Shown here one piece after another: positions 1,252 to 29,858 of a stretch of DNA of 30,326 nt; positions within the stretch are counted from its first letter, which is position 1; every line of letters begins with the position of its first letter. The position numbers and the translations under genes were made by a program. The notes below the pieces were generated by a model, which saw only the letters and a program-made list of their open reading frames with translations, was not told the DNA's origin and did no database searches. The stretch covers positions 1 to 30,326 of the forward strand of contig JAOZFG010000031.1 in assembly GCA_027491435.1 (NCBI GenBank), in the 5' to 3' direction. This stretch comes from Thermoproteota archaeon. Its GTDB lineage: Archaea > Korarchaeota > Korarchaeia > Korarchaeales > Korarchaeaceae.

Positions 1252-1584
1252 CCTAATCTTTAATCATTCCCAATCTATTTATCCATATTTCAGATTATTC
1301 CAAGATTTGTGTACAATCTGTACAGGTGTTATCAGCTCAGGCCACCGATTATTACAATGGCAATTGGCTTCAGCTTCTTGTGAGGGAGATTATAAGCCGT
1401 TTCGTTGGCAGGCAGGCTAGTTCGCCTTTGTTAATTTGGCTTTAGGCTTTGATGTGAATTTTCAAAAGTTTTTAATTAAACTTTCTTATTATTGTGAGAA
1501 ATTGTGAGTTAGGAGTAGATATTCCAAAAATTTTGGTAGGTTGGCAGCTACCTACATATTGAAGGAGGTCCATTAAGGGAAGTC

Positions 1585-2529
1585 CTAGCCTCCCTCTTTG
1601 AGCTTTTCAGCCCAGAGCGGGTGCTCTTCTTCAGCCCTCTTTAGGGGCACCTTACCAGTGATAAAGGTAGTGTCCATAGGGAACACCTTTGGCCTGAAGT
1701 GCGTGTAAGCCATGTGAACCATTATCAGAAACGACACGGCCAACACGGCCTCTTTGGTATGCATAACGTAAAGCAGACCGTCCATGAACCCCCTTCCGTA
1801 AAGGAACATCAGGAGCCCAGGAATTCCAAGGACGGCCATTCCCCAGTAGATGCCCCAGTACTCGAAGAGCTGCTCCGGATCGTACTTCCCGTACTTCTCA
1901 GGCTTCACTTTGGATGAGACGCTCCTCAACAGGTCTTTTACGAAGCCCCTCAGGAACCTCATGCTGTAGAAGTCCAGCATGGGGAACCTCTCCCTGAGGC
2001 TTTCCCCCTTGGCTTTAGCTAGCGCTGCCTCAGTTAAGTATTGGAAGAAGTGTATTATCACCAGGACGCCCATTGTCAAGCCTGAGATCACGTGTAAAGT
2101 TATGGCGTCTGCCCTACTAGAGAACATCCTCGCCTGTAAACCTAAACCAGTGAAGGCACATATCACGAAGGTTATTATCATCCAGATGTGCTGTACCCTC
2201 TGCCAGACCGTGAACCTCTCTACGTACACTTCCTCCTTGTGCCTCCTCCACTTCCCTACCTCAGAAGCCTCCAAGGCGAAGTGGCCCAGAACCCACCACG
2301 TGCCTACTATGGCCACGAGCACTACTAGGACGTCGAAGGCCACGGCTAGGAAGTCCCTCCACCAGGCGGTGCTGCCCAAGTTGATGGATGCAAGCAACTT
2401 GCCCAGCTTGTCCAGCCCTCCAGCCATCAATAGCCTCAAAGAGTACTCATAAACGAAGGCCCATCCTATTCCCAAGGTTATGGCCGTGGCTACTAGGCTG
2501 GCTATGAGCCTAGGGGTCCACTTAGTCAC
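1585..2529 (-). CDS. Membrane cytochrome b subunit (FdnI / Ni-hydrogenase cytochrome b-like) with extra N-terminal TM helices
   Basis: ERFTVWQRVQH, TLHVISG, IIHF, GKYDPEQ, VMHTKE and MVHMAY carry likely heme-ligand His residues; FdnI-like tail ITGKVP..AEEEHPLW. Likely start GTG 2529 overlaps the upstream gene's end (ORF track start 2577). Confidence 0.8.
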   Translation of the reverse strand: MTKWTPRLIASLVATAITLGIGWAFVYEYSLRLLMAGGLDKLGKLLASINLGSTAWWRDFLAVAFDVLVVLVAIVGTWWVLGHFALEASEVGKWRRHKEEVYVERFTVWQRVQHIWMIITFVICAFTGLGLQARMFSSRADAITLHVISGLTMGVLVIIHFFQYLTEAALAKAKGESLRERFPMLDFYSMRFLRGFVKDLLRSVSSKVKPEKYGKYDPEQLFEYWGIYWGMAVLGIPGLLMFLYGRGFMDGLLYVMHTKEAVLAVSFLIMVHMAYTHFRPKVFPMDTTFITGKVPLKRAEEEHPLWAEKLKEGG

Positions 2530-3526
2530 TCTTGCTGCCCCCCTTCTTAGAATAAGCCCATAGCCCTGCCACCACACCCGTTACAGCGGCTGCAGCTCCC
2601 CCGGCCAATGTCACGTTAGTTAGCTCGTTGGGTTTAGTTTCACTCGCCTTAAGCCTTATGACGCTGTCCAAGTGAGGCCTCATATCCTGGTGGCATGACT
2701 CGCACTGCATGAAGCCCCTGGTGAACTGGCCCATCTCGTAATTCTTGCCCTTGTAGTGACAGGTCCTGCAATCGGCAGTGGTCTGCGAAAGAGTGAGTTT
2801 GCCGACGGTGTCGAGCTCTCCCCTGAGATCAGCGTTTAACAGCTCAACTGCCTTGGCCGCCACGTCTCCAGTAAGCCTCGCGCACCTCTCGGATCTCTCG
2901 GGAGAGCCGCTGGCGTATCCTGAGATCTCACACCACTTGCCAACGGATACGTGACATAGTACGGAGTGGCTCACGTTCCTGGGCAATACCTTGTCGCTCT
3001 TGTACTTCTTCACCAAGAACTGGTGCTTTGACGCAAGCTCGTTGCTCTTCTCGCTTGGGAACGGGAAGACCTCGTACCACCTGTAGAGCATCTTACCTAT
3101 CTTATCCCAGTTCTTCGTAACCATGACTATGGCGTTGCTAGACCCGTTCAAAGCCCCACAGAGGGATCCCCACCCGAAGGCCCCGCCATAACCGAATTGC
3201 ATCATCCCTTGTATGTGCTCGTGTTCCTCTACAGCCTTCTGCACCTCCTCAACCGAGGGAAGTGGGAGTAGAGTGTAGGGGTATCCTACTTTCTCCTTCA
3301 AAGCTGTCATTATGGCCCAGAATGAGCCACCACCACACTCCAGCGCGTAATAGCCGAGGTGGCCCAGCTTCCTAACGTACTCCGGATCGAGCTCCTCGTA
3401 AGGCCAAGGCAGGTGAGGCACCTCTTCTGCGGCTAACACCTTTATCGGCTTACCTAGGGAGGCCCCCAGAAGCCCTCCTAGAGTTAGGAGGGTAGCATTC
3501 TTAAGGAACTCCCTTCTCGTGATCAA
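2522..3526 (-). CDS. Tat-exported split-Soret cytochrome c-like protein (C_GCAxxG_C_C family), diheme, with C-terminal membrane anchor
   Basis: Twin-arginine TRREFLK; Cys pattern EC..G, LCGALNG, LCHVSV..WC, ERCARLT; two CxxCH motifs (CRTCH, CESCH); hydrophobic C-terminus followed by KKGG. Confidence 0.82.
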   Translation of the reverse strand: MITRREFLKNATLLTLGGLLGASLGKPIKVLAAEEVPHLPWPYEELDPEYVRKLGHLGYYALECGGGSFWAIMTALKEKVGYPYTLLPLPSVEEVQKAVEEHEHIQGMMQFGYGGAFGWGSLCGALNGSSNAIVMVTKNWDKIGKMLYRWYEVFPFPSEKSNELASKHQFLVKKYKSDKVLPRNVSHSVLCHVSVGKWCEISGYASGSPERSERCARLTGDVAAKAVELLNADLRGELDTVGKLTLSQTTADCRTCHYKGKNYEMGQFTRGFMQCESCHQDMRPHLDSVIRLKASETKPNELTNVTLAGGAAAAVTGVVAGLWAYSKKGGSKSD

Positions 3527-3767
3527 CTTATCACCTGAGCCAAAAGTATGAACAAATTTATAATAAATATTACCTTTAATTGTTTAATTATAAGTATAGT
3601 TTTACGTATATTCGTTTTTTTATTAATATATTAACGAGTGATCATGTATTAATTTTTAATTGTGATTGTTGTGCAGATGTGATGGTAATACTGTGAAATC
3701 AAAAATACATGCGCATTCTCATGTATACATTTATATAAGACAAAGGCTCCCTCCTCTGGAGGTGCCT
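3527..3767. promoter_or_regulatory. AT-rich divergent promoter region
   Basis: Very AT-rich. TTATATAA at 3731-3738 and SD GGAGGTG at 3758-3764 precede ATG 3768. TATA-like TTTATAA near 3557-3563 could serve the minus-strand cytochrome gene. Confidence 0.6.
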
Positions 3768-4010
3768 ATGGAGACCCTCTCCCTGAGAGTCGATAAGGAA
3801 ATCATGAGGGTTATCGAAGAACTCATCTCCTTAGAGTTAGCCAGGAATAAGAGCGATGCCGCTAACCTGCTGATGAGGATGGGCCTCAAGGAGGTAAGGG
3901 AGCTAATAAATAGAAGAAGAAGGGTCATAAAGCTCGTTGAGAAGTACAAGACGGAGGGAGTCCCTTACAAGCTCCCCACACTGAAAGATCTAATGAGGGA
4001 TAGGGAATGA
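3768..4010 (+). CDS. vapB: Ribbon-helix-helix antitoxin (VapB-type)
   Basis: METLSLRVDKE...NKSDAANLL RHH pattern; SD-supported ATG 3768; ATGA overlap with the PIN gene. Confidence 0.8.
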   Translation: METLSLRVDKEIMRVIEELISLELARNKSDAANLLMRMGLKEVRELINRRRRVIKLVEKYKTEGVPYKLPTLKDLMRDRE

Positions 4011-4414
4011 GGTACTTGGACACCAGCGTGCTTATTTCAGCCGCCAATGACGAGGACCCCAATCACGACAGGGCTGTCAGGCTCTTGAGCGGGGATGCCG
4101 TTATATCCGAATTGGTAAAGGCTGAGCTTTACAGCGTCATGTCCAGGAACGTGAGGGTTTCAGGCGAGAAACTAGATGCGCTAGTCGAGTACGTAATCGA
4201 TATTAGCGGGGCTGAAGTCGTGGAGATAAGGTGGGAGGATGCTTTTAGGAGGCTTTACTTGCTGGCCGGCGAACTCAGGCTTAAAACCCTGGACTTACTG
4301 CACATTTCCGCTGCCTCAATCATGAGGGCTAGGGAATTTGCCACTCTCGATAAAGAGATAGTTGGGAGGGGGGATAGAGTAGAGGAGCTCACCGGAATAG
4401 TCGTGATATCTTGA
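4007..4414 (+). CDS. vapC: PIN-domain toxin (VapC)
   Basis: YLDTSVL, AEL, TLDLLH, FATLD acidic PIN residues. Confidence 0.9.
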   Translation: MRYLDTSVLISAANDEDPNHDRAVRLLSGDAVISELVKAELYSVMSRNVRVSGEKLDALVEYVIDISGAEVVEIRWEDAFRRLYLLAGELRLKTLDLLHISAASIMRAREFATLDKEIVGRGDRVEELTGIVVIS

Positions 4415-4785: not shown

Positions 4786-5658
4786 TTGAGGCTAGCCAGA
4801 TTTTACCATGAGGAGTACGGGACTTCATACGGGGTAATAGTTGATGAAGAGATAATCCCCAAGCCTGAGCTTGAGAGGAGGCTGGGAAGGAAGCTTCCAG
4901 CTACTGTGGAGGAGTTAATCCCCACGGGAATAATCTCAGAGCTCAAGGGGCTAACTGGCCCTGCCTATGGACTTAAGCTCGAGGAGGTAAAGCTCTTGAA
5001 ACCTCTGACCAGCCCTCCCAAGATCATATGCTTAGGTAAGAACTACGTGGAGCACGCGGCTGAGACGGGCTTTGAACCTCCCAAAGAGCCGATAATATTC
5101 ATGAAAGCCAGGACCTCTCTAAACGGACCCTACGACGACGTTATAGTTCCGGACGACTACGTTAAGGAGGTGGACTATGAAGGAGAGATAGCCTTCGTTA
5201 TGGCCAGGGGAGGGCGGAGGATCTCATCTAGGGAGGCTAAAGATTACGTGTTAGGCTTCATGGCGTTTAACGACGTAACTGCCAGGGACCTCCAGAGGAG
5301 GGACGGTCAGTGGGTCAGGGGGAAGAGCATAGACGGCTTCGCCCCCATAGGACCTTGGATTGACCTAACAGCAAACTTCGAGGAGCTGGGCGTCACCACC
5401 CTGGTGAACGGGGAGAGGAGACAGCACGCCCCCTCTAAGGACATGATATTCACTCCCTGGGATATAGTGGAGGTACTGAGCAAGGGGATGACCCTGGAGC
5501 CGGGAGACGTAATAGCTACGGGGACTCCCGGAGGAGTAGGAGCCTTCTCAAACCCCAAAAAGCTGTTAAAGCACGGGGACGTTGTGGAGGTGGAAGTCTG
5601 GGGGGTTTGGAGTATAAGGAACAGGATAGTCTTTGAGAGCTTAAAGGACTCTGGCTAG
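4786..5658 (+). CDS. Fumarylacetoacetate hydrolase family protein
   Basis: KIICLGKNYVEHAAE, VDYEGE, NDVTARDLQ, GKSIDGFAPIGP, LEPGDVIATGTPGGVG. Confidence 0.93.
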   Translation: MRLARFYHEEYGTSYGVIVDEEIIPKPELERRLGRKLPATVEELIPTGIISELKGLTGPAYGLKLEEVKLLKPLTSPPKIICLGKNYVEHAAETGFEPPKEPIIFMKARTSLNGPYDDVIVPDDYVKEVDYEGEIAFVMARGGRRISSREAKDYVLGFMAFNDVTARDLQRRDGQWVRGKSIDGFAPIGPWIDLTANFEELGVTTLVNGERRQHAPSKDMIFTPWDIVEVLSKGMTLEPGDVIATGTPGGVGAFSNPKKLLKHGDVVEVEVWGVWSIRNRIVFESLKDSG

Positions 5659-6417
5659 AGGTGGGAGTTCTTTCAAAGTCAGGACTATGGCGTCGGGGAC
5701 CTTGACCTCTATTATCCCGTTCATTATGTCCCTGCTCATTTTCTTCATTAACATGCTCCTCTTCATGGCAACTAGGGGCCTTTCAAGGGGATCCCAACCT
5801 GAGAGGTCCTCCCATTCCCTAGCTACGAGGACGGCCTTTATTCCAGCTGATTTAGCCCCGAATATGTCATGACTTAGGGAGTCACCTACGTGGAAGGCCT
5901 CATCGCACTCACACTCCTTCATGGCCTTGTGGAAGGCTTCGGGCCTGACCTTGAGGATTCCCAGCCTGTCTGTCGTTATCACGTCGTCAAACTCCTTTGT
6001 GATCCCCAGTCTCTCCATCAGGACTAGCTGGTACTTGGAGAGTCCTCCCGTCATCACGCAAACCCTTCTGTTCTTCCTCAGCTCCCTTATGGCGGGGATC
6101 GCATCCTCGTAGGGCTTGGTCCTCCCGTCTTCTACCGATTTAAGCAGTAAGGCGAGGGGGTCCACCCTATCCTCAACCCCGAAGGAGGAGAGGGCCTCGT
6201 TTATCACGAAGTCCCAGTCGAAGGCCTTAACGTAGTTTCCGGCTAGTATCTGATCCTTTATTATTTCCCTGACCCTTCTCCTAAACAGGAGGTAAGCCTC
6301 GCTCTCATCCCTGGCCGCTCCCTTCTTAACTAAGAGCTTTGACGGAACCCCTATGAGGTACCTTCCGTAGTCCGTTCTTATCACGGTGCCGTCTAAGTCG
6401 AGGAAGGCACACCTCAT
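5641..6417 (-). CDS. HAD-superfamily hydrolase
   Basis: DLDGT (motif I), MT (motif II), K..P (motif III), GDSLSHD (motif IV). Likely start ATG 6417 (ORF track 6471). Confidence 0.88.
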   Translation of the reverse strand: MRCAFLDLDGTVIRTDYGRYLIGVPSKLLVKKGAARDESEAYLLFRRRVREIIKDQILAGNYVKAFDWDFVINEALSSFGVEDRVDPLALLLKSVEDGRTKPYEDAIPAIRELRKNRRVCVMTGGLSKYQLVLMERLGITKEFDDVITTDRLGILKVRPEAFHKAMKECECDEAFHVGDSLSHDIFGAKSAGIKAVLVAREWEDLSGWDPLERPLVAMKRSMLMKKMSRDIMNGIIEVKVPDAIVLTLKELPPLARVL

Positions 6418-9628: not shown

Positions 9629-10359
9629 CCCAGGTACACCTCCTTAACCTTCGGATCCTCCCTAACCTCTTCAGGGGTTCCCACTGATAGTATCTGCCCC
9701 TGGTGCATCACCACAATTCTGTCAGACACCTCGTACACCACGTCCAGGTCGTGCTCCACCAACAAGACCGTAACTCTCAGCTGGTCCCTCAACTTCTTTA
9801 TAACGCCTACCGTGGTCTTCTTTTCCCTGTAAGACATGGCTGCGGTGGGCTCGTCCAGCAGGATTACCTTGGGGTTCAACGAGTAGGCTATCGCCACGTC
9901 CAAGAGCTTTCTGTCACCGTGGCTCAGCTCCTTGGGGGTTAGGTGGGCCTTCACGTCCAGGTTGAACTCCTTGAGAATCTTCATGGCCTTTTCAACGGCT
10001 TCTGAGTCATCTAACCTTTTAGTCATAGAGATCGTCCCACTTATGGAGTGGATGGCCACCAGCAGGTTCTCCAAGACGGTTAGGTCCTCGAAGACGTTGC
10101 TTATCTGGAAACACCTGGCTAAGCCCTTGCTAACCAGTTGATTGGGGCTCTTTCCAGTTATGTCCTCTCCCATTAAGTACACTTCCCCTGAGTCCGGCTT
10201 TATCAGCCCGCTTATCAGGTTAAGCAAGGTGGTCTTGCCTGCCCCATTGGGGCCCACTAAGCTGACTATCTCCCCTTGATCAACGTGTATAGATACGCCA
10301 TCTACTGCCCTCACGTTGCCGAAGTACTTCCTAAGGTTTCTGGTCTCCAGAGCTTTCAT
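9625..10359 (-). CDS. livG: Branched-chain amino acid-type ABC transporter ATP-binding protein
   Basis: GPNGAGKTT, LSHGD, LLDEPTA, VEHD, VKEVYLG tail. ATG 10359 overlaps the livM stop (ATGA). Confidence 0.9.
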   Translation of the reverse strand: MKALETRNLRKYFGNVRAVDGVSIHVDQGEIVSLVGPNGAGKTTLLNLISGLIKPDSGEVYLMGEDITGKSPNQLVSKGLARCFQISNVFEDLTVLENLLVAIHSISGTISMTKRLDDSEAVEKAMKILKEFNLDVKAHLTPKELSHGDRKLLDVAIAYSLNPKVILLDEPTAAMSYREKKTTVGVIKKLRDQLRVTVLLVEHDLDVVYEVSDRIVVMHQGQILSVGTPEEVREDPKVKEVYLG

Positions 10360-11279
10360 CTCTTCTCCCTCCACTTAAGGAAGTAGCCCAGAACCCCGTG
10401 AGGGAAGAACAGGACTATGGCCACTAGGACCACCCCTATTACCAGTAGCCAGTACTCAGTGGCGCTCATCGCCACGTCGGCCAGGAATGAGTAGATGAAC
10501 CCTCCAACCAGCGGACCTAAGAACACCCTAGGGCCTCCTAGAAGGGTTACGAAGACGAACTCGGCCGAGTGTGTCCACAGCATGGTCTCAGGCGATATGG
10601 CTGTCTCTAGCAGGACGTAGAGGGCTCCAGCCACTCCGGAGAAAATGCTGCTTATTATAAAGCTGGTGAGCCTGACCCTGCTCACATCAAGGCCGATGAA
10701 CTTCGCCCTGAAGGCGTTGTCCCTTACCGCCATGAAAGAGAGTCCTAGAGAGGACCTTGTTATCTTGTAGAGAATGAACAGAGAGGCTAGGGTTATCGCC
10801 AGTATCACGTAATAGTAAAGTTCGAGGGTATTGAAGGGTCTGGGAAGGCCGTAAATCCCGTCACTCCCTCCCAGAAAGTCCCACTTAACGGCCACCCCGT
10901 AGAACATCTGTCCAAAGGCCAAGGTCAGTATCGCGAAGTAGATCCTGGTGTGCCTGACGCATAGGAAGCCTATAACAGCGCCAAACACCGCTGACATGAT
11001 CACGGCCATGACGAAGGACTCCACGTAGCCGAGCCCGAATCTAGACATCATCACCGCCAGGGTGTAGCCCCCAACCCCCCAGAAGAGGGCGTGGCCAAAG
11101 CTTAACAGCCCAGTGTATCCGAATAGGAGGTTGAAGCTTGTAGCGGCAAGGGATAGTAGGAGGGCCGACGCCACCAGATGAGTCATGTGCCTCCCGGCCA
11201 GGGGAACCAAGGCTAGCAGAATGATCCCAACGGCAATGGCTATCTGCTCAAAGCTTACCTCCTCAGACTCGGATTGCAT
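10356..11279 (-). CDS. livM: ABC transporter permease (LivM type)
   Basis: FNLLFGYTGLLSFGHALF, YFAILTLAF, GGSDG, AVRDN..RA. Confidence 0.9.
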   Translation of the reverse strand: MQSESEEVSFEQIAIAVGIILLALVPLAGRHMTHLVASALLLSLAATSFNLLFGYTGLLSFGHALFWGVGGYTLAVMMSRFGLGYVESFVMAVIMSAVFGAVIGFLCVRHTRIYFAILTLAFGQMFYGVAVKWDFLGGSDGIYGLPRPFNTLELYYYVILAITLASLFILYKITRSSLGLSFMAVRDNAFRAKFIGLDVSRVRLTSFIISSIFSGVAGALYVLLETAISPETMLWTHSAEFVFVTLLGGPRVFLGPLVGGFIYSFLADVAMSATEYWLLVIGVVLVAIVLFFPHGVLGYFLKWREKR

Positions 11280-11283
11280 TAAA

Positions 11284-12177
11284 TCACCTCCTCTCGAATT
11301 CAGGAGCTCCGAAGAGTCCCGTAGGTTTAACTAGCAGCACTAGAGCCATTATCACGAAGACCACCACGATCTCCATCTGGGGGTAGAAGGCTATGGCCAA
11401 GGACCTGAAGACGCCCACTATTAAGGAGCCTGCCAACGCCCCTGGGACGCTTCCCATGCCTCCTATGACTATAACCGCAAAGCTGTACACGATTATGTCG
11501 GTCCCCATCCCCGGGCTGGCGGTGTACAGGGGCCCCGCGCTTATCCCTCCTAGCCCGCTTAACAGGCTGCCCAAGAAAAATGAGTAGACGAATATCTTGC
11601 TCACGTCAACTCCCATTGCTTCCACGACTTCACTGTCCTGAGCCGCAGCCCTCATGACCTTTCCCGTGAAGGTCTTAGAGAAGAACGCCCAGAGCACAAG
11701 AAAGACGGAGAAGCCTAGCGCTATCAGCAGGATGTGGTACACCGGTATCTTGTACTCGCCGAACCTGAATCCCCCTAGGAAGGCGTTGGGGTCTGGAAAG
11801 TTGATATAGGCGGGCCCCCAGATCATCTTTACCAGGTCGTCGAAGATCAGTATGAGCCCGAAGGTTAGCAACAGCTGGTACTCTTCACCCATCTCGTAAG
11901 TCCTCCTGATGAGCCCCCTCTCCAGGGCAGCGCCCAGCAACCCGGTAAGTGGAGGGACTGCCAGGAAGGCTAGTAAGTAGCCCAAGGGAGTTCCGCTCAT
12001 CAGGTAGAGAACTACGGTTATTCCCAGGTAGGCCCCGACCATGTAAAGGCTGCCGTGTGCCAGGTTGAGCACCCTCATTATGCCGTATATTAGGGTGAGC
12101 CCCGAGGACACAAGGAAGAGTATGGAGGAGTAGACGAGACCGTTAAATGTTTGAACTAGAATGAGGCCTGGATCCAT
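11284..12177 (-). CDS. livH: ABC transporter permease (LivH type)
   Basis: GLTLIYGIMRVLNLAHG, GKVMRAAAQD, VIVIGGMGS, KPTGLFG. Confidence 0.92.
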   Translation of the reverse strand: MDPGLILVQTFNGLVYSSILFLVSSGLTLIYGIMRVLNLAHGSLYMVGAYLGITVVLYLMSGTPLGYLLAFLAVPPLTGLLGAALERGLIRRTYEMGEEYQLLLTFGLILIFDDLVKMIWGPAYINFPDPNAFLGGFRFGEYKIPVYHILLIALGFSVFLVLWAFFSKTFTGKVMRAAAQDSEVVEAMGVDVSKIFVYSFFLGSLLSGLGGISAGPLYTASPGMGTDIIVYSFAVIVIGGMGSVPGALAGSLIVGVFRSLAIAFYPQMEIVVVFVIMALVLLVKPTGLFGAPEFERR

Positions 12178-20501: not shown

Positions 20502-21110
20502 ACGAGAAACTCCCTGAAGCTGGCCTTAGAGATCCTCAGGGAAAGGGGGTTTGAGATAGAGGGGGTTAACATCCCCCTCTCAATTTCTGGCTTTCAGGTA
20601 AGCGACGTCGACGTGTTAGCCGTAAAGGGTGGGATCAGGTACGCTGTAGAGGTGAAATCGGGGAGGCTCGACGTGGGCGGGGTGAGGCAGGCTTACGTCA
20701 ACGCCTTGCTAATGGAGGCCAAGCCCATGGTAATTTGTAGGGGCTTCTCGGACGAAGGAGCTGAAGCCTTGGCCAAAGAGCTGGGGGTTGAGGTTATAGA
20801 GCTGGAGGACCTCCTAATCTCAGATCCAGAGGAGCTCAGGGCCTTGATTAGGGAGGAGGTTAGAAGAGCTATTTTGGAGGTTGTTCCGTCCGTACTGGGA
20901 ATCAGGTCCTTAAATCTGACCGACGAGGAGGTTAGGATTCTAGAAGCCATCAAGACGTCAAATAGTTTCCTTGAGGCCGCCTCCAAGCTGGGAGTAACTC
21001 CAGAGGAACTTGGGAATCGGTTGGGCGAGTTGAAGTCTGCAGGGAAGGTGCCTAAGTGGGTCAGGGGGTTCGACCTGCTTAAGGAGTGGGCCTCACTGAT
21101 AGCTCCCTGA
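20502..21110 (+). CDS. PD-(D/E)XK (restriction endonuclease-like) protein with C-terminal HTH; start uncertain
   Basis: The frame is open from 20502: LALEILRERGFEI...VSDVDVLAVKGGIRYAVEVKSG...QAY.NA. C-terminal EAASKLGVTPEEL. No in-frame ATG/GTG/TTG before 20613. Confidence 0.7.
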   Translation, partial: TRNSLKLALEILRERGFEIEGVNIPLSISGFQVSDVDVLAVKGGIRYAVEVKSGRLDVGGVRQAYVNALLMEAKPMVICRGFSDEGAEALAKELGVEVIELEDLLISDPEELRALIREEVRRAILEVVPSVLGIRSLNLTDEEVRILEAIKTSNSFLEAASKLGVTPEELGNRLGELKSAGKVPKWVRGFDLLKEWASLIAP

Positions 21111-22113
21111 CTGCCTCCCTGTAAACTACCACTGCCTTCCTAAGGTCTTCAACGCTGACCCTCTCCTCATCTGTGTGGGCCAGCCTGCCGTCTCCCGGGC
21201 CGTAGGCAGCTATGCTCTTCACCTTTTCACGTAGTATGTTCATGTCGCTCCCACCGTACTTCTTCAGAAGCTTTGGTTTCATGCCCGCCTTCAGGATCGA
21301 CCTGATTAAGGCCCTGGGGACGGGGTCACTAGGGCTCACCTTAACTGGAGGGACAGACCACCTCACCTCTAAAGAGCACCCCTCCCTCAGAGAACCCCTT
21401 AGCTTGGAGATAACCTCATCCACCTCAAAGCCGGGGGGCACCCTGAGGTCCACTTCGGCCTCGGCCAGGGTTGGGAGGACGTTAAAGCTGTGGCCGGCCC
21501 TTATCACCGTTACCGCAGCGCTTGGCTCCTCATACCTTTTGCCGGGGGCCAGGAGCTTGAAGGCTGCTATTACCTCAAGTAGCTTATCCAGGGCCGAATC
21601 GCCTGGAGAGGAGGAGTGTCCTCCTCTTCCCTTACAGGTTAACCTGAGGTGGGCCCCTCCCCTATAGGCTATTATGACCCCGTTCACGTTAGATGGTTCG
21701 CCTATTATCACGTAATCGGCTGAAATTTCCAGATTTCTGGCCCCTCTACTATCCCCCTCCTCTCCCACCAGAGCTGCTACGGTGACGGGAAATTCCAAGG
21801 TTGAGGCGGCCACTAGCATGGCGGCCAGGGGGCCTTTAGCGTCCACAGCCCCCCTCCCGGTCACGTGATCGTTCACGTATATTGGGAGCTCTCCCGGAAC
21901 TGTGTCGTAGTGGCCTACGAGCCAGACCTTTCCGCCTTCTCCCTTCCTAGCTATCACGTTCCCCACACCGTCTACCTCCACGTCCAGGCCCAGCTCCTTA
22001 CAAAGCTCGACCAGAACCTTCTGACCCCTTTCCTCCTCCCCAGTGGGAGTGTAAGCTTTAATCAGTTCAACTAAGACCTCTTCTACTCTCCTCAGCTTTA
22101 AGCACCCCCTCAA
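21079..22113 (-). CDS. lysK: [LysW]-lysine/[LysW]-ornithine hydrolase (M20 family)
   Basis: GHYDTVPG, GRGAVDAKGPL, VGEE, IIGEP, YGPGD..LAHT; operon context. Confidence 0.9.
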   Translation of the reverse strand: MRGCLKLRRVEEVLVELIKAYTPTGEEERGQKVLVELCKELGLDVEVDGVGNVIARKGEGGKVWLVGHYDTVPGELPIYVNDHVTGRGAVDAKGPLAAMLVAASTLEFPVTVAALVGEEGDSRGARNLEISADYVIIGEPSNVNGVIIAYRGGAHLRLTCKGRGGHSSSPGDSALDKLLEVIAAFKLLAPGKRYEEPSAAVTVIRAGHSFNVLPTLAEAEVDLRVPPGFEVDEVISKLRGSLREGCSLEVRWSVPPVKVSPSDPVPRALIRSILKAGMKPKLLKKYGGSDMNILREKVKSIAAYGPGDGRLAHTDEERVSVEDLRKAVVVYREAVRELSVRPTP

Positions 22114-23209
22114 TCAGGGAAAGGGCGTCCTGAACGTCTTTTTCGTTTATCAGGTAGGGCGGGAGGAACCTCAAGGTGGTGGACCCAGCCTTCAACGAGA
22201 GAAGGCCTCCCTGCTGCAGGGCCTTTATCACAGGTGTGGGGTTAACTCTGAGCTTGACCCCTATCATCAACCCCTCCCCCCTTACCTCCCTGACCAGCTT
22301 TGACTCCAGAGAGCTGAGCCCCCTCATCAGGAGGGCTCCCATCTCACGGGCCCTCTCCACAACCCCATCGTGTAGAAGGGTTTCTAGACCACCGGCAACT
22401 GCCGCTAAGGCTAAGGGATTACCGCCGTGGGTGGAACCGTGCTCGTAAGGCTTTATCATAGAGGCCACCTCGTCGGTGAAGGCCACCAAGCTTACGGGGA
22501 ATCCGCCCCCTATGCTCTTCCCAGCCAGCAGGATGTCCGGTTTAACGCCCCTGGCCTGGTGGGCCCACACCTCGCCTGTCCTCCCGAACCCGGATTGAAC
22601 CTCGTCAACTATCAGGAGAGCACCTACCTCGTCGCAGGCCTCCCTCAACGATTTCATGAAATCAGGCCTTGAGGGGATGACCCCTCCCTCCCCTTGAACC
22701 GGTTCCACTATCACGGCGGCTACCGATTCATCAAGCTCCAGGGGCTCGTTGAAGTTAGCGAACTCCACGTCCAGAGAGGGGAAGCCCTCCTTGTATTTGG
22801 GGTTCCAGGTGACCGAGAGAGCTCCTAAGGTCCTGCCGTGGAAGCTACCCTTAAAGGCCACGAACTTCCTCCTCTTGGTCGCTTTTATGGCGAGCTTTAA
22901 GGAGAGTTCAACGGCCTCAGTTCCACTGTTCTGAAAGAAAACGTTGTTTAAATCGTTGGGTAGAACCTTTCTAAGCATGGACAGGACCTCGTGGAGCACA
23001 GGAGTATCGAAGGAGGGGGTGGTCACCATGACCCTGTCCATCTGCTCCTTAAGCCTCTTCACAACTCTAGGAGGCCTGTGTCCCAGGAAAGCAGCCCCAT
23101 GTCCTGTGTGAAAGTCCAGATACCTCCTTCCCTGGGAATCCCAGACGTACTGGCCCTCTCCCCTCTCTAGCGTTACCCCTCTGTATCCGAAGAACCTGAA
23201 CAGCCTCAT
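22067..23209 (-). CDS. lysJ: [LysW]-aminoadipate semialdehyde transaminase (class III PLP)
   Basis: NSGTEAVE, SFHGRTLGALS, EPVQGEGG, DEVQSGFGRTG, GKS, HGST.GGNP. Confidence 0.92.
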   Translation of the reverse strand: MRLFRFFGYRGVTLERGEGQYVWDSQGRRYLDFHTGHGAAFLGHRPPRVVKRLKEQMDRVMVTTPSFDTPVLHEVLSMLRKVLPNDLNNVFFQNSGTEAVELSLKLAIKATKRRKFVAFKGSFHGRTLGALSVTWNPKYKEGFPSLDVEFANFNEPLELDESVAAVIVEPVQGEGGVIPSRPDFMKSLREACDEVGALLIVDEVQSGFGRTGEVWAHQARGVKPDILLAGKSIGGGFPVSLVAFTDEVASMIKPYEHGSTHGGNPLALAAVAGGLETLLHDGVVERAREMGALLMRGLSSLESKLVREVRGEGLMIGVKLRVNPTPVIKALQQGGLLSLKAGSTTLRFLPPYLINEKDVQDALSLIEGVLKAEESRRGLS

Positions 23210-24039
23210 TAAAACCCACCTAGGGCGTACCTGACCAACTCCCTAGCTATGTCAACCCCTGTTACCCTAGACGCGTTCTTGAACTCGGTCACCCCATTGA
23301 GCTCGAGCACCTTCAGGCCCTCCTCCGACTCAACCAGGTCTATGCCCAGAAAACCTCCGCCGACGGCCCTGACAGCCTTGACCGATATATCCTCGATCTC
23401 CTCCGTTATTTCCGCTGGCTCTGCCCTCCCTCCCCTGGCGGTATTGGTTATCCAGTGGTCAGACACCCTGTATATGGCTGCCACAACCCTTTCTTCGGTG
23501 GCATAAACCCTTAGATCCCTCCCGGGCTTCCTGACGTACTCCTGTATGTAGTGAACCCTGTAGTAAGGTGAGGGTATCGCCTCCCTGTGCTCTATGATTG
23601 TCCTTAACTCCTCCTCGTCCTCGGCCAGGGATACCAGCCTGCCCCAGCTCCCATTAATGGGCTTGACCACCACAGGGTAGCCCAGGGACTCCGCCGCCTT
23701 GAGGGCCCCCTCCAGGTTGAAAGCCAGCTTGGTCCGGGGGGTGGGCACTCCCGCCTTGACCAGGGCTGACGTGGTCATCACCTTGTTGCCACAGGTGCTC
23801 AGCACACGTGAGCTGTTCACCACCCTAACGCCTAGGCCCTCAAAGAGAGATGCGGTAACTTGAGCTCTTGTGGAGCTTATAGCCCTTATAATGACCACGT
23901 CGAGCTCGTACTCACCTTCAAATGAGAGGGGAGAGGAGTTAAGGTGGTAAGGCACGGCCTCGTGCCCCATCTCCCTTATTGCTTCTATTATCTGCCTCTC
24001 CTCCGGCCTCATCCTCTCGTAGACCACCGCTACCCTCAT
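23209..24039 (-). CDS. lysX: LysW-alpha-aminoadipate ligase (RimK/ATP-grasp)
   Basis: KP..GSWGRL, YIQEYV.KPGRD.R, WITNTARGG, EFKNA. Confidence 0.9.
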   Translation of the reverse strand: MRVAVVYERMRPEERQIIEAIREMGHEAVPYHLNSSPLSFEGEYELDVVIIRAISSTRAQVTASLFEGLGVRVVNSSRVLSTCGNKVMTTSALVKAGVPTPRTKLAFNLEGALKAAESLGYPVVVKPINGSWGRLVSLAEDEEELRTIIEHREAIPSPYYRVHYIQEYVRKPGRDLRVYATEERVVAAIYRVSDHWITNTARGGRAEPAEITEEIEDISVKAVRAVGGGFLGIDLVESEEGLKVLELNGVTEFKNASRVTGVDIARELVRYALGGF

Positions 24040-24206
24040 TCTCCCCAGTCCTCTCCTATTTCCTCAGCCTCCTTCAGCAGGAACACCCCATCCTGCTCGT
24101 ATACCTCCAAGGTAGCGCCGCAAGACGGGCACTCCACCAGCTCACCTGGCATGACGTCGTCGGGCAGCTGAACCGGCGACTCACACACGGGACACTTGGC
24201 CTCCAT
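24036..24206 (-). CDS. lysW: Amino-group carrier protein LysW
   Basis: CPVC...CPSC zinc ribbon, acidic composition, C-terminal EDWGE. Likely start ATG 24206. Confidence 0.96.
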   Translation of the reverse strand: MEAKCPVCESPVQLPDDVMPGELVECPSCGATLEVYEQDGVFLLKEAEEIGEDWGE

Positions 24207-24220
24207 AATCGCACCCATAA

Positions 24221-24314
24221 GTTCGATATACTGCAATTAAAAGCTTTACTCTCGTATGAAACGGTACTAATATCGAAAATGCATGCTATAATTATTTAGT
24301 AAAAAGATCGAACC
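24221..24314 (-). promoter_or_regulatory. Internal lysW promoter with Lrp/LysM-like operator boxes
   Basis: Minus-strand AGTAAAGC-TTTTAATT (BRE/TATA, TATA at 24235-24242); 17-bp semi-palindromes at 24263-24279 and 24298-24314. Confidence 0.55.
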
Positions 24315-24317
24315 TCG

Positions 24318-25088
24318 TCAGGGGACGACGTGTGTCCCCCCTCCGGCCAGCGCCTCGGTAACCGGGGCTTTCCGTAGGCCGTTGGCTATCACAACCTCTA
24401 CCCCATTATTAGCCACTTCAGCGGCCATCAGGAGTTTTCTATTCATTCCATATCCTATCTCCTCAGCTAAGGACCTGGCCTCCTCTGGGTTAACTCTCCT
24501 CACCACCTCGCCCTCATGAACTACCCCCTCGACGTCAGAGAGGAGTAACAGGTGAGTGGGCCTCAGGGCGATCGCCAGCTTGGATGCCGCCTGATCCCCA
24601 TCGACGTTGAGCATCTCCCCCTGAGTTCCCCTAGCCAGGGGGGAGATCACTACCGAATAACCCGAGGATAGGAGGAAACTCACCAGGTCTGGCCTAACTT
24701 CCACTATCCTGCCCGTGTAGCCCCCCTCTATTACCCTCCTCCTGTCACCTACCTTGACTACTATCCTTCTCTTCCTCTCAGCTATTAGGGTGGGCCCGTC
24801 CACTCCGGATATTCCCACTGCCTTATGGCCTAAGTCCAGAAATTTAGACACGACCTCCTTGTTTATCTTCCCCATGACCATTACGAAAACCTGCAACTCT
24901 TCCCAGCTAGTGTACCTGCTCCTTATCCCTGAAGGGGAGACCACGAATTTGGGCTCAACGCCCATCTTCTTGGAGTACTCGGTGACCTGATCCCCTCCCC
25001 CGTGGATTAGCACTAAGGGCTTCGGGGAGTCCCTGATGACTTCTTCAACGTTCTTAAGGGCCCTGCCCCCAACTTTAATCACTATCAT
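24318..25088 (-). CDS. lysZ: [LysW]-aminoadipate/[LysW]-glutamate kinase
   Basis: IVIKVGG, HGGG, SPSGIRSRYT, GGYTGRI, LNVDGD, GMNRKL. Likely start ATG 25088. Confidence 0.92.
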   Translation of the reverse strand: MIVIKVGGRALKNVEEVIRDSPKPLVLIHGGGDQVTEYSKKMGVEPKFVVSPSGIRSRYTSWEELQVFVMVMGKINKEVVSKFLDLGHKAVGISGVDGPTLIAERKRRIVVKVGDRRRVIEGGYTGRIVEVRPDLVSFLLSSGYSVVISPLARGTQGEMLNVDGDQAASKLAIALRPTHLLLLSDVEGVVHEGEVVRRVNPEEARSLAEEIGYGMNRKLLMAAEVANNGVEVVIANGLRKAPVTEALAGGGTHVVP

Positions 25089-25098
25089 AGGGAACACC

Positions 25099-26115
25099 TC
25101 ACGGGCTGAGAGGAGGGATCGTTAAGCCCGTCCTCTCGTCAAGGCCGGCCATTAGGTTTAGTGATTGGATGGCCTGTCCGGCGGCCCCCTTTATCAGGTT
25201 ATCTATCGCCGCAAAGCCGGTGACCCTACCACTTTCCTGATCCGAGGCGAACCCTACGTCGGCGAAGTTGCTCCCTATCACGGACTTAACGTTTGGAACC
25301 GTTCCTCTCTGAGCCACCCTCACGAAGGGCTCTCCCGAGTAGAACTTAGCGTAGGCCCTCCAGAGTTCCGCCTCATCCACTTCCAAGAACGAGTGAACGC
25401 TAGCGAAGGCCCCCCTAACTGAGCTGACGGAGTGAGGGACTAAGGAAACCTTAACCTTCCTTCCGGCCAGTTTTGAAAGCTCCTGTTGGGCTTCAGCTTG
25501 GTGCCTATGGCCTGAGGGTGAGTACGGCCTTATGGCCCCCTCCCTGTAAGGGTGATGGGTCCCCTTGGTGGGCTTGGATCCGGCCTCGCTGCTACCCACC
25601 TTGAGATCTGCTATCAGGTGGGAGGCTCCCATCTTAACCAGGGGGGCCGAGGCTAGGATAGTGGCTGTGGCGTTACACCCTGGGGATGCCACCAGCTCTG
25701 CCCCCTTTATCTCCTCCCTGTTAAGCTCGGGAAGCCCGTAAACTGCCCTCTCTAGTAGGTCCGGATAGGGGTGAGTGAACCCGTACCACCTCTCGTAGAG
25801 GGACGGGTCTTTTAGCCTGAAGTCAGCTCCTAGGTCAACCACCTTAACTCCGGACTCCATTAGCTTTGGCACTAGGTCCTTGCTCAGCCCGTGGGGTAGA
25901 GCTATGAAGGCGTAATCGTAATCCCCCTTGAGGGCCTCTTCCAGGGAGGAGAACTTCATGGAGTAGAAGCCCTTGAGGTGTGGGTGAACCAGGTAAATGG
26001 GCTTCCCCACGTATTCCTTGGAGGTAGCCGCCACCACCTCTGCTGGGTGGTTCACCAGAAGCCTTAGAAGCTCGCCTCCCGTGTAGCCGGAGGCTCCAAA
26101 AACGGCAACTTTCAA
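25099..26115 (-). CDS. lysY: [LysW]-aminoadipyl/glutamyl-phosphate reductase (ArgC family)
   Basis: GASGYTGGELLRLL, DLGADFRL, YGLPEL, PGCNATA, HRH..E, IDNLIKGAAGQA. Confidence 0.93.
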   Translation of the reverse strand: MKVAVFGASGYTGGELLRLLVNHPAEVVAATSKEYVGKPIYLVHPHLKGFYSMKFSSLEEALKGDYDYAFIALPHGLSKDLVPKLMESGVKVVDLGADFRLKDPSLYERWYGFTHPYPDLLERAVYGLPELNREEIKGAELVASPGCNATATILASAPLVKMGASHLIADLKVGSSEAGSKPTKGTHHPYREGAIRPYSPSGHRHQAEAQQELSKLAGRKVKVSLVPHSVSSVRGAFASVHSFLEVDEAELWRAYAKFYSGEPFVRVAQRGTVPNVKSVIGSNFADVGFASDQESGRVTGFAAIDNLIKGAAGQAIQSLNLMAGLDERTGLTIPPLSP

Positions 26116-26933
26116 GCCCTCACCACCCCCCTAACGTACTGGGCAAGTAGCTCGTGGACGGGAATGCCGGTGGCTTTCATAAAGCCCTTGAACTCCGGCA
26201 CCCCGTTAACCTCGTTCACGTAGGTTTCGCCGTCGCTTAACAGGTCTATGGCCACGAATTCCCCGCTAACAGCTTCAGAGGCCCTTAACGATAGTTCCTT
26301 CAACTCTTCATCTGGACTTATCTGTTTTGTGAAGGCCCCCAAGGCGACGTTGCTCTTCCAACCGTTGCTAGCGTACCTCTGAACGCACCCTATGAGTTCG
26401 TCGCCCAAGACCAGACACCTTATGTCCCTGCCACCGGTCTCCACATATCTCTGGATCAAGTGTCCCTTGACGTTGCTGGGAAGGGCTTCCCTGACGCTGG
26501 CCAAGGAGGACATGGAGCGCTCGTTCTTGACCAGGGAGATCAGCCTTCCCCAACTTCCTATCGGGGGTTTATCCACGACTTTTCCCCCGATCAGCCTGAA
26601 GGCCTTGATGGCAGCGTCAGCTCCCAGGGCTAGAAGGGTGGGCAGTATTCTAACGCCTGCTGAGGAGAGTGAAGCGTAAGTGAGGGCCTTGTCCCCACAG
26701 ATCTGAAGAGTTAGGCTTGAGTTTATCGCGTGGAACCCGCTCGCTTCCAGGAAGGCCGCGGACCTAACGGCCCTGTACATGCTAACAGTCCTTATCAGGG
26801 CTATCCCCTGACCTTCTTTAAGCGATAAAGGATCTGTTAGCGTATTGACCACTTTTACCGGGACCCCTGACTCCTTTAGGGCTGAAAGAATTAGTTTCTC
26901 CTCGAGCCTCGGGTGGTCGACGAGCAAGCGCAC
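26112..26933 (-). CDS. argX: Glutamate--LysW ligase (RimK/ATP-grasp)
   Basis: DKPPIGSWGRL, WKSNVALG, EVNGVPEFKGF (GF signature of ArgX). Confidence 0.8.
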   Translation of the reverse strand: MRLLVDHPRLEEKLILSALKESGVPVKVVNTLTDPLSLKEGQGIALIRTVSMYRAVRSAAFLEASGFHAINSSLTLQICGDKALTYASLSSAGVRILPTLLALGADAAIKAFRLIGGKVVDKPPIGSWGRLISLVKNERSMSSLASVREALPSNVKGHLIQRYVETGGRDIRCLVLGDELIGCVQRYASNGWKSNVALGAFTKQISPDEELKELSLRASEAVSGEFVAIDLLSDGETYVNEVNGVPEFKGFMKATGIPVHELLAQYVRGVVRA

Positions 26934-28231: not shown

Positions 28232-28636
28232 TTACACAATGTCGTCTAGGCTTGCCACCTTTATAATACTACTTGCGGCTTGAAACAGCTTTTGATCTTC
28301 TGTTACAAGCATTAGCTTGTGTTTCCTGGCAAGTGCTATGTATGATGCATCATAGGCTGTCACTCCCTTGGAGGTCGCTATTTGAAGGATATCGTGTTCT
28401 AGGCCACTAGGCTCTAATATAACCATGTTCCGGACCAGCTCCGTGAAATCGCTAATCAGAGAAATTGCTTCTTCAAGGCTAAGCCTGCGTAGCAGGTGGG
28501 TCTCTTTCCAAAACGCGTTTAAAATCTCGTATACTGTGAGCCACTGTAATGCTTGTCCACCCAACGGCACCAGCTTAGCTTCTTTAAATGCCTTGACGAG
28601 GCTGGATGCATCAATCAAGTAAACAGGCTTCATCAT
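28232..28636 (-). CDS. vapC: PIN-domain toxin (VapC)
   Basis: YLIDASS, YEILNAFWK, TAYDASYIALA, LVTED. Confidence 0.92.
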   Translation of the reverse strand: MMKPVYLIDASSLVKAFKEAKLVPLGGQALQWLTVYEILNAFWKETHLLRRLSLEEAISLISDFTELVRNMVILEPSGLEHDILQIATSKGVTAYDASYIALARKHKLMLVTEDQKLFQAASSIIKVASLDDIV

Positions 28637-29197: not shown

Positions 29198-29403
29198 AAG
29201 CCGTAAGGGTGCGGTATGAGAAGGGTGTGCTTAAGCCCTTAGAGCCCGTGGACCTCCGAGAGGGAGAGGAGAGGATTGCAGTGCTCGTCCCGGTTGGGGA
29301 GGAGAGGAGGCAGATTCTCCGGAAATATCGAGGAATACTGGGTAAGACCACCCAGGAGGAGATGGAGGAGTTGCTAGCCGAGGCGGAGTGGGAGCCTCTA
29401 TGA
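29191..29403 (+). CDS. AF2212/DUF104-like antitoxin
   Basis: MSKAVRVRYEKGVLKPLEPVDLREGEE signature; ATGA overlap with the PIN gene. Confidence 0.88.
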   Translation: MSKAVRVRYEKGVLKPLEPVDLREGEERIAVLVPVGEERRQILRKYRGILGKTTQEEMEELLAEAEWEPL

Positions 29404-29858
29404 AGGAATACGTTTTCGTAGACTCTAACGTGTTCATCCAACTTCTCTATGAGGGTGCTCGGACCCCTGAGGCAGAAGAGCTCTTGGACAAATATCCACT
29501 ACTAGCAACAAGTATCGGAGTTGTAGATGAAGTACTCCACTTCATTGTAAGAAAAGAGGCAATGAATAAGTATGGTATAAGGAGATCTTACGACCTAAGA
29601 AAGCTTGTTAGGAGCAAAGGCGTAAGGTTTGCAAAAGAAAGCATAAACAATTTCGTCTCACTACTAAAAGAACTGTATGTAAAAGTAGTAGCAGATGTCG
29701 AGGCCCAGCCAAGCCGAATAGTCACCATCATGGACAACTATAGACTATCACCCAGAGACGCCATCATAGCACTGACATGCAGACACTACAGTATCGACAC
29801 TATCCTAACGTTTGACGAGGACTTCAAGCGAGTTCCATGGCTTAAAGTAGTTCCCTAG
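29400..29858 (+). CDS. vapC: PIN-domain toxin (VapC)
   Basis: VFVDSNVF, DEV, SPRDAIIALTC, ILTFDEDFKRVP; ATG 29400. Confidence 0.92.
   Translation: MKEYVFVDSNVFIQLLYEGARTPEAEELLDKYPLLATSIGVVDEVLHFIVRKEAMNKYGIRRSYDLRKLVRSKGVRFAKESINNFVSLLKELYVKVVADVEAQPSRIVTIMDNYRLSPRDAIIALTCRHYSIDTILTFDEDFKRVPWLKVVP

Follow-up and report, generated by a model that had tools for sequence, protein, structure and literature searches.

Split-Soret cytochrome c (Ssc) is a family that is already named in annotation and has a solved structure (1H21), and despite that structure no function was assigned to it in the literature searched, most subscription journals lying outside the scope of the search. A membrane-attached form was mentioned for Natranaerofaba (PMC8359318), and treatment of Desulfovibrio desulfuricans with nitric oxide was followed by a 1.74-fold drop of ssc, in the fold-change units of that study (PMC5701242). 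In Escherichia coli the iron-sulfur subunits FdnH and HyaA are exported through twin-arginine translocation (Tat), end in a single C-terminal helix and have a partner cytochrome b, and a widespread bacterial module of a stand-alone tail-anchored ferredoxin and an FdnI-related cytochrome b has neither conserved neighbours nor an assigned function, according to a 2024 survey of bacterial Tat proteins (PMC10924467). A pair orthologous to the one described here was mentioned for Pyrodictium delaneyi (Pyrde_1256/Pyrde_1257); that study saw both proteins by proteomics, recognised the Ssc in bands cut from haem-stained gels, and assigned no function (PMC8105010). No characterisation of such a complex was found in the literature searched. 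The window analysed here is a stretch of 30,326 nucleotides (nt) from a Thermoproteota archaeon of the family Korarchaeaceae (assembly GCA_027491435.1, contig JAOZFG010000031.1, positions 1 to 30,326 of the forward strand). It contains two overlapping open reading frames (ORFs) on the same strand, which encode an anchored Ssc and a cytochrome b:

2522..3526, minus strand: gene 1, Tat-exported, C-tail-anchored dihaem cytochrome c of the split-Soret type (ORF of 334 amino acids)
1585..2529, minus strand: gene 2, dihaem cytochrome b with the FdnI fold, long form, 314 amino acids and six predicted membrane helices (PF01292, AlphaFold2, Foldseek)
2522..2529, minus strand: 8-nt overlap of the gene 1 stop with the GTG start of gene 2 (GTGACTAA)

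The pair looks like a small self-contained respiratory module. With a probability of roughly 0.6, it is a two-subunit, Tat-assembled and quinone-linked electron wire of the FdnH/FdnI kind which lacks a catalytic subunit. We infer the physical binding of the two proteins, their coupling to quinone, their cofactor content and the direction of the wire from the evidence set out below.

The following features were recognised in gene 1:

3428..3526, minus strand: twin-arginine signal peptide, residues 1-33 (RREFLK ... VLAA; TIGR01409), with a cleavage site predicted from the sequence only
2837..3409, minus strand: C_GCAxxG_C_C-type Cys domain, approximately residues 40-230, with C64, C123, C191, C199, C215 and H192 (Pfam; aligned to the iron-centre domain of 1H21)
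2756..2770, minus strand: haem c attachment motif 1, CRTCH, residues 253-257 (sequence; aligned to a CxxCH of 1H21)
2690..2704, minus strand: haem c attachment motif 2, CESCH, residues 275-279 (sequence)
2552..2614, minus strand: C-terminal transmembrane tail anchor, V305-Y325, followed by a KK-rich cytoplasmic end (hydropathy 1.67 over 17 residues)

Translation of gene 1 starts at a TTG codon located five bases 3' of GGTGA. The twin-arginine leader scored 17.2 bits against TIGR01409 (cut-off 16.7), and its residues R4, R5, F7 and K9 were invariant across the 20 homologues of alignment A1. The Cys domain matched the Pfam family C_GCAxxG_C_C (PF09719) with 36.2 bits (cut-off 27), while no Fer4 family matched gene 1 at E <= 0.1 in the profile scan. 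The tail has one hydrophobic helix, with lysines after it. Based on the alignments to NCBIfam NF047622 (split-Soret cytochrome c; E 7e-47, model positions 41-265 of 275) and to PDB chain 1h21_A (E 1.3e-27; query residues 40-281 on chain residues 18-235), gene 1 is judged homologous to Ssc over its full length, both the iron-centre and the dihaem domain being covered. The NF047622 score of 160.1 bits, against an equivalog cut-off of 400, makes gene 1 a homologue of the Desulfovibrio protein but not its equivalog. A database search with gene 1 gave 545 matches at E <= 0.001 among 8000 scored candidates, and the homologues included proteins of Pyrolobus fumarii, Ignicoccus and Pyrodictium as well as Deferribacterales, Desulfuromusa and Desulfobacterium (52-57% identity).

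Conservation was assessed across the 77 Ssc sequences of the tree described below. Both CxxCH motifs (C253/C256/H257 and C275/C278/H279) were invariant in 77/77, the five Cys of the domain were kept in 96-100%, H192, which directly adjoins C191, in 100%, and H285, which follows the second CxxCH motif, in 97%. From their conservation, H192 and H285 are likely to be the sixth haem ligands. The combination of a Tat signal with CxxCH motifs, to which a preliminary description of this locus, made from the sequence alone, had drawn attention, proved to be the normal architecture of the whole split-Soret family rather than a peculiarity of gene 1.

Two regions were distinguished in gene 2:

2260..2517, minus strand: N-terminal two-helix extension, residues 5-90, lineage-specific (hydropathy and model)
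1699..2208, minus strand: core of the cytochrome b, made up of four helices, with H114, H146, H257 and H272 as candidate ligands of haem b (ligand role proposed from the FdnI fold)

The ORF listed for gene 2 covers 1585-2577; the GTG at 2529 gives 314 amino acids, the same length as database entry P0121, and is likely to be the true start. Gene 2 matched Pfam Ni_hydr_CYTB (PF01292) with 32.8 bits (cut-off 30.1), or 34.7 bits in the genome search, and 103 homologues were found by database search. A sequence search of the PDB with gene 2 returned nothing at E <= 1. The AlphaFold2 model, with a mean pLDDT of 91.1, had a single structural match in the PDB at E <= 0.001 when searched with Foldseek, namely 1kqf_C, the FdnI subunit of E. 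coli formate dehydrogenase-N (E 8.6e-5, probability 1.00, target-normalised TM-score 0.70). The extension shows hydropathy peaks at residues 9-27 and 61-79 and appears in the model as helices 5-47 and 54-90, placed before the four-helix core. The four candidate ligands were invariant in 25 long forms of this cytochrome b, and the short forms introduced below have His at the aligned positions. The preliminary description had listed two overlapping genes, a Tat signal, the Cys set, two CxxCH motifs, a C-terminal membrane helix and an FdnI-like cytochrome b with extra helices, and it was correct in every item.

The association of the two genes was surveyed in 80 Ssc loci from a species-representative genome collection, which were retrieved with the 20-sequence alignment A1, translated in six frames and then searched with profiles of both types of Ssc-adjacent cytochrome b. 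A single-sequence phmmer search with gene 2 followed by four rounds of profile iteration detected a partner in only 8 loci; the short forms emerged after clustering of the neighbours and construction of a second profile. A tail of 51-64 residues after the second CxxCH, containing a hydrophobic stretch, was found in 34/80 loci. In all of these (34/34) the tail-anchored Ssc is directly followed by a Ni_hydr_CYTB gene, whose start lies at -148 to +38 nt relative to the point where the Ssc ORF ends. Eight partners are of the long type seen in the window (ORFs of 320-356 amino acids, apart from the one in L010, where a contig end leaves only 158) and 26 are short (approximately 220-280 amino acids, the two-helix extension being absent). 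Cytochrome b of either type was found anywhere in the locus in 0/46 of the other Ssc loci, in which the downstream sequence amounted to at least 868 nt in 37 cases and to 473 nt or less, too short to judge, in nine. Two loci (L064 and L081) have long tails, of 112 and 107 residues, yet no cytochrome b in the locus, and the Ssc sequences of L008, L061 and L075 are truncated or without haem motifs.

Judged by record titles, 11 of the 34 paired loci are archaeal (Thermoproteota) and 23 are bacterial, the latter from Thermodesulfobacteriota (including Geobacter and Desulfuromusa), Deferribacterota, Aquificota, Chloroflexota and one candidate phylum; the module is thus not specifically archaeal, as had first been proposed. 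Within the order to which the archaeon belongs, Ssc was matched at E <= 1e-20 in 8/38 genomes, the window's genome included. Two of these eight matches are N-terminal fragments only, one contains an in-frame TAG and one runs into the end of its contig. The match with the single in-frame TAG (G012:C46:12169-13152) comes from the same genus as the window; the TAG may reflect a pseudogene, an error of sequencing or some other cause.

The search for a catalytic partner covered 113 proteins encoded up to two genes upstream and three genes downstream of the 34 anchored Ssc genes, ORFs overlapping the cytochrome b being omitted. None of the 113 is a molybdopterin, NiFe or 4Fe-4S subunit. In the window itself, the scan took in six proteins surrounding the pair and, farther away, 22 larger ORFs; no molybdopterin, NiFe or 4Fe-4S gene was present, and no other redox enzyme was found among the scanned proteins of the 30 kb. 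The statement that no such subunit is adjacent therefore held for the window, and the idea of a conserved stand-alone module was borne out by the survey, in which a cytochrome b followed every anchored Ssc and none of the 113 neighbours was catalytic.

The cytochrome b might instead be a spare anchor for a distant formate-dehydrogenase-like or hydrogenase complex, with its position next to Ssc being incidental. A weak match of gene 2 to TIGR01583 (formate dehydrogenase gamma subunit) points in this direction, with 32.7 bits against an equivalog cut-off of 115.85. In the genome of the window (1.64 Mb, 99.5% complete), the only other Ni_hydr_CYTB genes are a paralogue of gene 2 and an FdnI-like gene within its own FdnG-like/FdnH-like/FdnI-like operon, and the NiFe hydrogenase operon has its own HmcE/TmcC-like membrane protein and DsrK-like subunit. 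Both potential clients thus have anchors of their own, the anchored Ssc and cytochrome b are paired in 34/34 loci from five phyla, and the two genes overlap by 8 nt; on this evidence a spare anchor is highly improbable. The readings of chance adjacency and of a spare anchor were both rejected. According to the preliminary description, the proposal would have to be given up if the pairing were not conserved or if the cytochrome b served a distant formate dehydrogenase or hydrogenase. The pairing was conserved throughout, and the service to a distant complex was not borne out, since the FdnGHI-like and NiFe hydrogenase operons are anchored by themselves.

The paralogue belongs to a second Ssc-cytochrome b pair on contig C17 (approximately 9743-11695; locus L094 5741-7693, minus strand), the products of which are 69% and 64% identical to those of the window. 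At a distance of about 2 kb are genes for a protein resembling type III sulfide:quinone reductase (NF049943, E 3e-105), a DUF1641 protein and a DsrE-like protein, together with a small gene that is TusA-like by eye.

A tree of Ssc was constructed by a quick IQ-TREE search from 77 sequences, consisting of 75 loci and the two copies of the window's genome; L008, L046, L055, L061 and L075, each with at most one haem motif or with a length below 240 residues, were left out. The 36 anchored sequences, from 34 loci and the two copies just named, all fell within a single clade with an SH-aLRT support of 100, which is consistent with a single origin of the tail together with the cytochrome b. The archaeal Ssc sequences form a group (support 92) that includes those with a long and those with a short partner. 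The cytochrome b tree comprised nine long and 26 short partners and 15 other FdnI-like proteins, a biased sample in that these others were chosen from the matches of the long form; in it the short partners are set apart by a long branch (4.03, support 100) from the long partners and the ordinary FdnI-like proteins.

The two subunits differ in how far they resemble each other between archaeal loci. Compared with the window, L003 is 69% (Ssc) and 60% (cytochrome b) identical, whereas in L006 an Ssc of 66% identity is accompanied by a cytochrome b that aligned by blastp with only E 6e-4 over 69 residues. Altogether, archaeal Ssc proteins that are 60-69% identical are paired with two barely alignable types of cytochrome b, one in L006, L007 and L009 and the other in L003, L004, L005 and the window (E 6e-4 or worse, or no match). 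From these comparisons the partner in the archaeal branch would have been either exchanged or extremely diverged, and the membrane subunit looks to have been exchanged rather than co-inherited.

Under the proposed mechanism, Ssc would fold and receive its Cys-bound iron centre in the cytoplasm, the folded protein would be exported by the Tat pathway, and two c-type haems would be added outside by the Ccm system. The C-terminal helix would then tether Ssc to the membrane and dock it on the dihaem cytochrome b. Genes with possible roles in assembly were seen beside the pair: TatA in 3 loci, a TorD-like chaperone in one and a CcmC-like gene in 3 archaeal loci. In L072 a 367-amino-acid protein of the TorD/NarJ type (Nitrate_red_del; 4811-5911) is encoded directly upstream of the anchored Ssc, with TatA downstream; a possible role of this protein is that of an Ssc-dedicated chaperone for Tat proofreading. 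The check for cytochrome c maturation genes that accompanied the preliminary description had a positive outcome, as CcmC-like, CcmA/B-like, CcmF-like and thioredoxin-like genes are present in the window's genome.

The resulting wire would run from a quinone site and the haems b in the membrane through two haems c to the Cys/iron centre facing outside, and the Ssc head would serve as the electron entry or exit, whether through a docked redox partner or through its own action on a small substrate. The structure 1H21, as Abreu et al. reportedly described it in 2003, has its haems at one end of a dimer in which each monomer is said to supply the sixth ligands to the haems of the other, and four Cys are said to hold a [2Fe-2S] centre. 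If this layout were carried over, the haem end would face the membrane and the iron centre would point outward. The conserved residues fit such a continuous wire: the four His could hold two b haems, the two CxxCH motifs together with H192 and H285 could hold the c haems, and the five Cys are the remaining element.

Complex prediction with the products of genes 1 and 2 gave a score of 0.35 (runs of 0.35, 0.43 and 0.34), the best control scoring 0.00. Among 157 solved complexes 116 attained the pass mark, and among 215 mismatches 2 did so; passes at 0.60 or below were obtained for only 18 of the 157 solved complexes and for both of the passing mismatches. Contact agreement between runs was at least 67%, and the pLDDT of the partners was at least 83. 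The prediction passed, at a level that hints weakly at binding.

Flow from a low-potential donor outside to the quinone pool appears slightly favoured over flow from quinol outward, at little better than even odds. In five Bacillota loci (L060, L063, L067, L068 and L078) a soluble Ssc is encoded directly after the genes for a NiFe hydrogenase small subunit, large subunit and HycI protease. The soluble protein there occupies the position expected for a cytochrome b or c3 partner in such an operon, which suggests that Ssc can be a redox partner of hydrogenase. FdnI and HyaC usually conduct electrons from an outside donor to quinone, and the potentials of Ssc haems are low; the slight preference is based on these two points together with the Bacillota loci.

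The opposite direction would make the pair a quinol dehydrogenase working outward, in which the cytochrome b oxidises quinol and the Ssc head delivers electrons to reductases or multihaem cytochromes outside, as a functional stand-in for the quinol dehydrogenases of the NrfH/CymA type or as a PhsC-like reverse redox loop. The thermodynamics are unfavourable, as the FdnI fold normally reduces quinone on the cytoplasmic side and running it in reverse costs proton-motive force, and as transfer from quinol to the low-potential Ssc haems would be uphill. Potential recipients do occur: a 662-amino-acid multihaem cytochrome gene adjoins the Ccm genes in the window's genome, and multihaem cytochrome genes flank the pair in L035. 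No gene for an acceptor enzyme was conserved beside the pair in the 113-protein neighbour scan. Thiosulfate reductase cytochrome b was a weak NCBIfam match to gene 2 (E 0.0014). In the P. delaneyi study, the cytochrome b Pyrde_1257 was more abundant on nitrate than on ferrihydrite, the Ssc being unchanged (PMC8105010), an observation that would also suit outward flow. The same applies to the regulators beside bacterial pairs. A divergent LysR gene is found next to the pair in 7 loci, and in loci of the Desulfuromonadia type a histidine kinase, usually with a sigma-54 response regulator, is encoded downstream; such dedicated adjacent regulators suggest induction by a specific condition. Taken as a whole, an outward-working quinol dehydrogenase is a possible but minority interpretation.

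The regulators, being of a type associated with substrates, also bear on another reading, namely that the Cys/iron-centre domain of Ssc is itself catalytic and acts outside the cytoplasm on a small substrate such as a sulfur or nitrogen species. In that case the two proteins would make up a complete oxidoreductase that is coupled to quinone and has no Mo, Ni or flavin cofactor. The conserved Cys number five, whereas four are needed for a [2Fe-2S] centre, reportedly the cluster type of 1H21; the parent family TIGR01909 is named "(seleno)protein"; and no gene for a partner enzyme is conserved nearby. A formate/nitrite-family channel gene lies just upstream of Ssc in 3 loci, which are so closely related that the adjacency counts as about one event, and a sulfur-transport gene is found near several soluble Ssc forms and near L035. 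No activity of any member of the family was found in the literature searched, and the soluble Ssc genes that follow hydrogenase genes in Bacillota fit an electron carrier better than an enzyme. A self-sufficient enzyme is regarded as unlikely. Its fullest form would have the anchored Ssc and cytochrome b as a complete two-subunit respiratory enzyme in which the five-Cys iron centre is catalytic on an extracytoplasmic substrate and two c and two b haems lead to the quinone pool, with no molybdenum, nickel, copper or flavin; this enzyme would have spread by transfer between hyperthermophilic archaea and anaerobic bacteria, its membrane subunit being exchanged at least once. This version is a speculative one, to which we attach a rather small probability.

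Several points weigh against the interpretation of the pair as a quinone-linked electron wire. The complex prediction passed only weakly, and the direction of flow was argued from general background on haem potentials and from analogy. The support for quinone biosynthesis in the window's genome is thin, consisting of a weak match to the MqnA family (29.9 bits, cut-off 26) located 2 kb from a UbiA prenyltransferase. The patchy occurrence in 8/38 genomes of the order indicates that the module is accessory and dispensable. The combination of 66%-identical Ssc proteins with two types of cytochrome b means that the interface between the subunits is generic or was rebuilt. Mutants in the soluble-Ssc genes of Desulfovibrio alaskensis had no phenotype under 12 donor/acceptor combinations (PMC4215793). 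Finally, L036 falls inside the anchored clade with an apparently soluble Ssc, without tail or cytochrome b, on a contig with only 179 nt downstream.

The L036 gene (2920-3813) is from Desulfurobacteriaceae; its product ends three residues past the second CxxCH, and AT-rich sequence follows over the 179 nt to the contig end. The tail may have been lost secondarily in this case.

Putative control sites were identified at both ends of the operon:

3527..3665, minus strand: upstream region, rich in AT and with a TTTATTATAAA stretch, in which GGTGA precedes the TTG start: putative promoter and ribosome site (read from the sequence)
1526..1555, minus strand: hairpin plus T-run approximately 30 nt past the cytochrome b stop: candidate operon end (consensus scan)

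The promoter consensus scan of the region did not rise above shuffled sequences. Hairpin/T-run sites in the region numbered 4, against 2.3 +/- 1.5 in shuffles, which is not above them, so that the candidate terminator is a pattern match only.

On the same strand, 333 bp downstream of the redox pair, is a gene (388-1251) for a 287-amino-acid protein that has a membrane helix at its N terminus, a linker rich in Thr, and four Lipoprotein_15 repeats (SCO0930-like, E 9e-61) with CYG[DE]C motifs; in the other loci this gene is not found beside the pair. A small gene and the PIN-domain gene that it overlaps, in a VapBC-like layout (3666-4414, plus strand), are divergent from the Ssc operon, and two further PIN genes are located at the far end of the window (28232-28636, minus strand, and 29388-29858, plus strand). 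A run of genes at 21079-26933 (minus strand) encodes an M20 peptidase, a class-III aminotransferase, two LysX/RimK-type ATP-grasp proteins, an amino-acid kinase and a semialdehyde dehydrogenase; this run, of the LysX/LysZ/LysY type, has the layout of the lysine/arginine pathway that uses a carrier protein (LysW-type). Other genes of the window are for a fumarylacetoacetate-hydrolase-family protein, a HAD hydrolase, a metallophosphoesterase, a branched-chain amino-acid ABC transporter and two CitMHS transporters.

That membrane-bound Ssc is always encoded with a cytochrome b of the quinone type gives the family a concrete place in an electron-transport chain. For the hyperthermophilic Thermoproteota, which have few c-type cytochromes, the pair may represent a link, overlooked so far, in respiration with hydrogen, nitrate or iron. 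It also provides an experimental handle on Ssc, the relatives in Geobacter and Desulfuromusa carrying dedicated regulators. No report of the strict relation between tail and cytochrome b, of the single clade across two domains of life or of the two partner types was found in the literature searched.

To the proteins of the cultured hyperthermophilic archaea Pyrodictium abyssi and Pyrolobus fumarii, the pair of the window is approximately 57-58% identical; Pyrodictium, Pyrolobus and Ignicoccus have proteins homologous to both genes, and the window's genome carries two copies of the pair. The module of the Tat survey is also made up of two genes, one for a protein with a Tat signal and a C-terminal tail and one for an FdnI-related cytochrome b, but there the head is annotated as a ferredoxin, whereas here it is a split-Soret cytochrome c without a Fer4 match, and the word "Soret" does not occur in the main text of the survey (PMC10924467). 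The pair thereby adds a second head group, a dihaem c plus an iron centre, to the stand-alone modules of tail-anchored Fe-S protein and cytochrome b.

Like the Ssc of D. desulfuricans ATCC 27774 (1H21), to which it is homologous over its full length, gene 1 has a Tat-type leader and a Cys-rich iron-centre domain followed by two CxxCH motifs. It differs from 1H21 in a 17-residue insertion and in a C-terminal extension of approximately 50 residues with a membrane helix, both absent there, and in being encoded with a cytochrome b, the Desulfovibrio protein being soluble and without a linked cytochrome b. In its overall plan the pair resembles FdnH/FdnI (1KQF) and HyaA/HyaC, in which a tail-anchored, Tat-exported redox subunit is seated on a dihaem cytochrome b whose core has four helices and whose four His are conserved. 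Unlike these the pair has no catalytic alpha subunit; compared with FdnI, gene 2 has two extra N-terminal helices and scores below the equivalog cut-off; and in place of the 4x[4Fe-4S] ferredoxin FdnH, the anchored subunit here is a dihaem c/Cys-iron protein.

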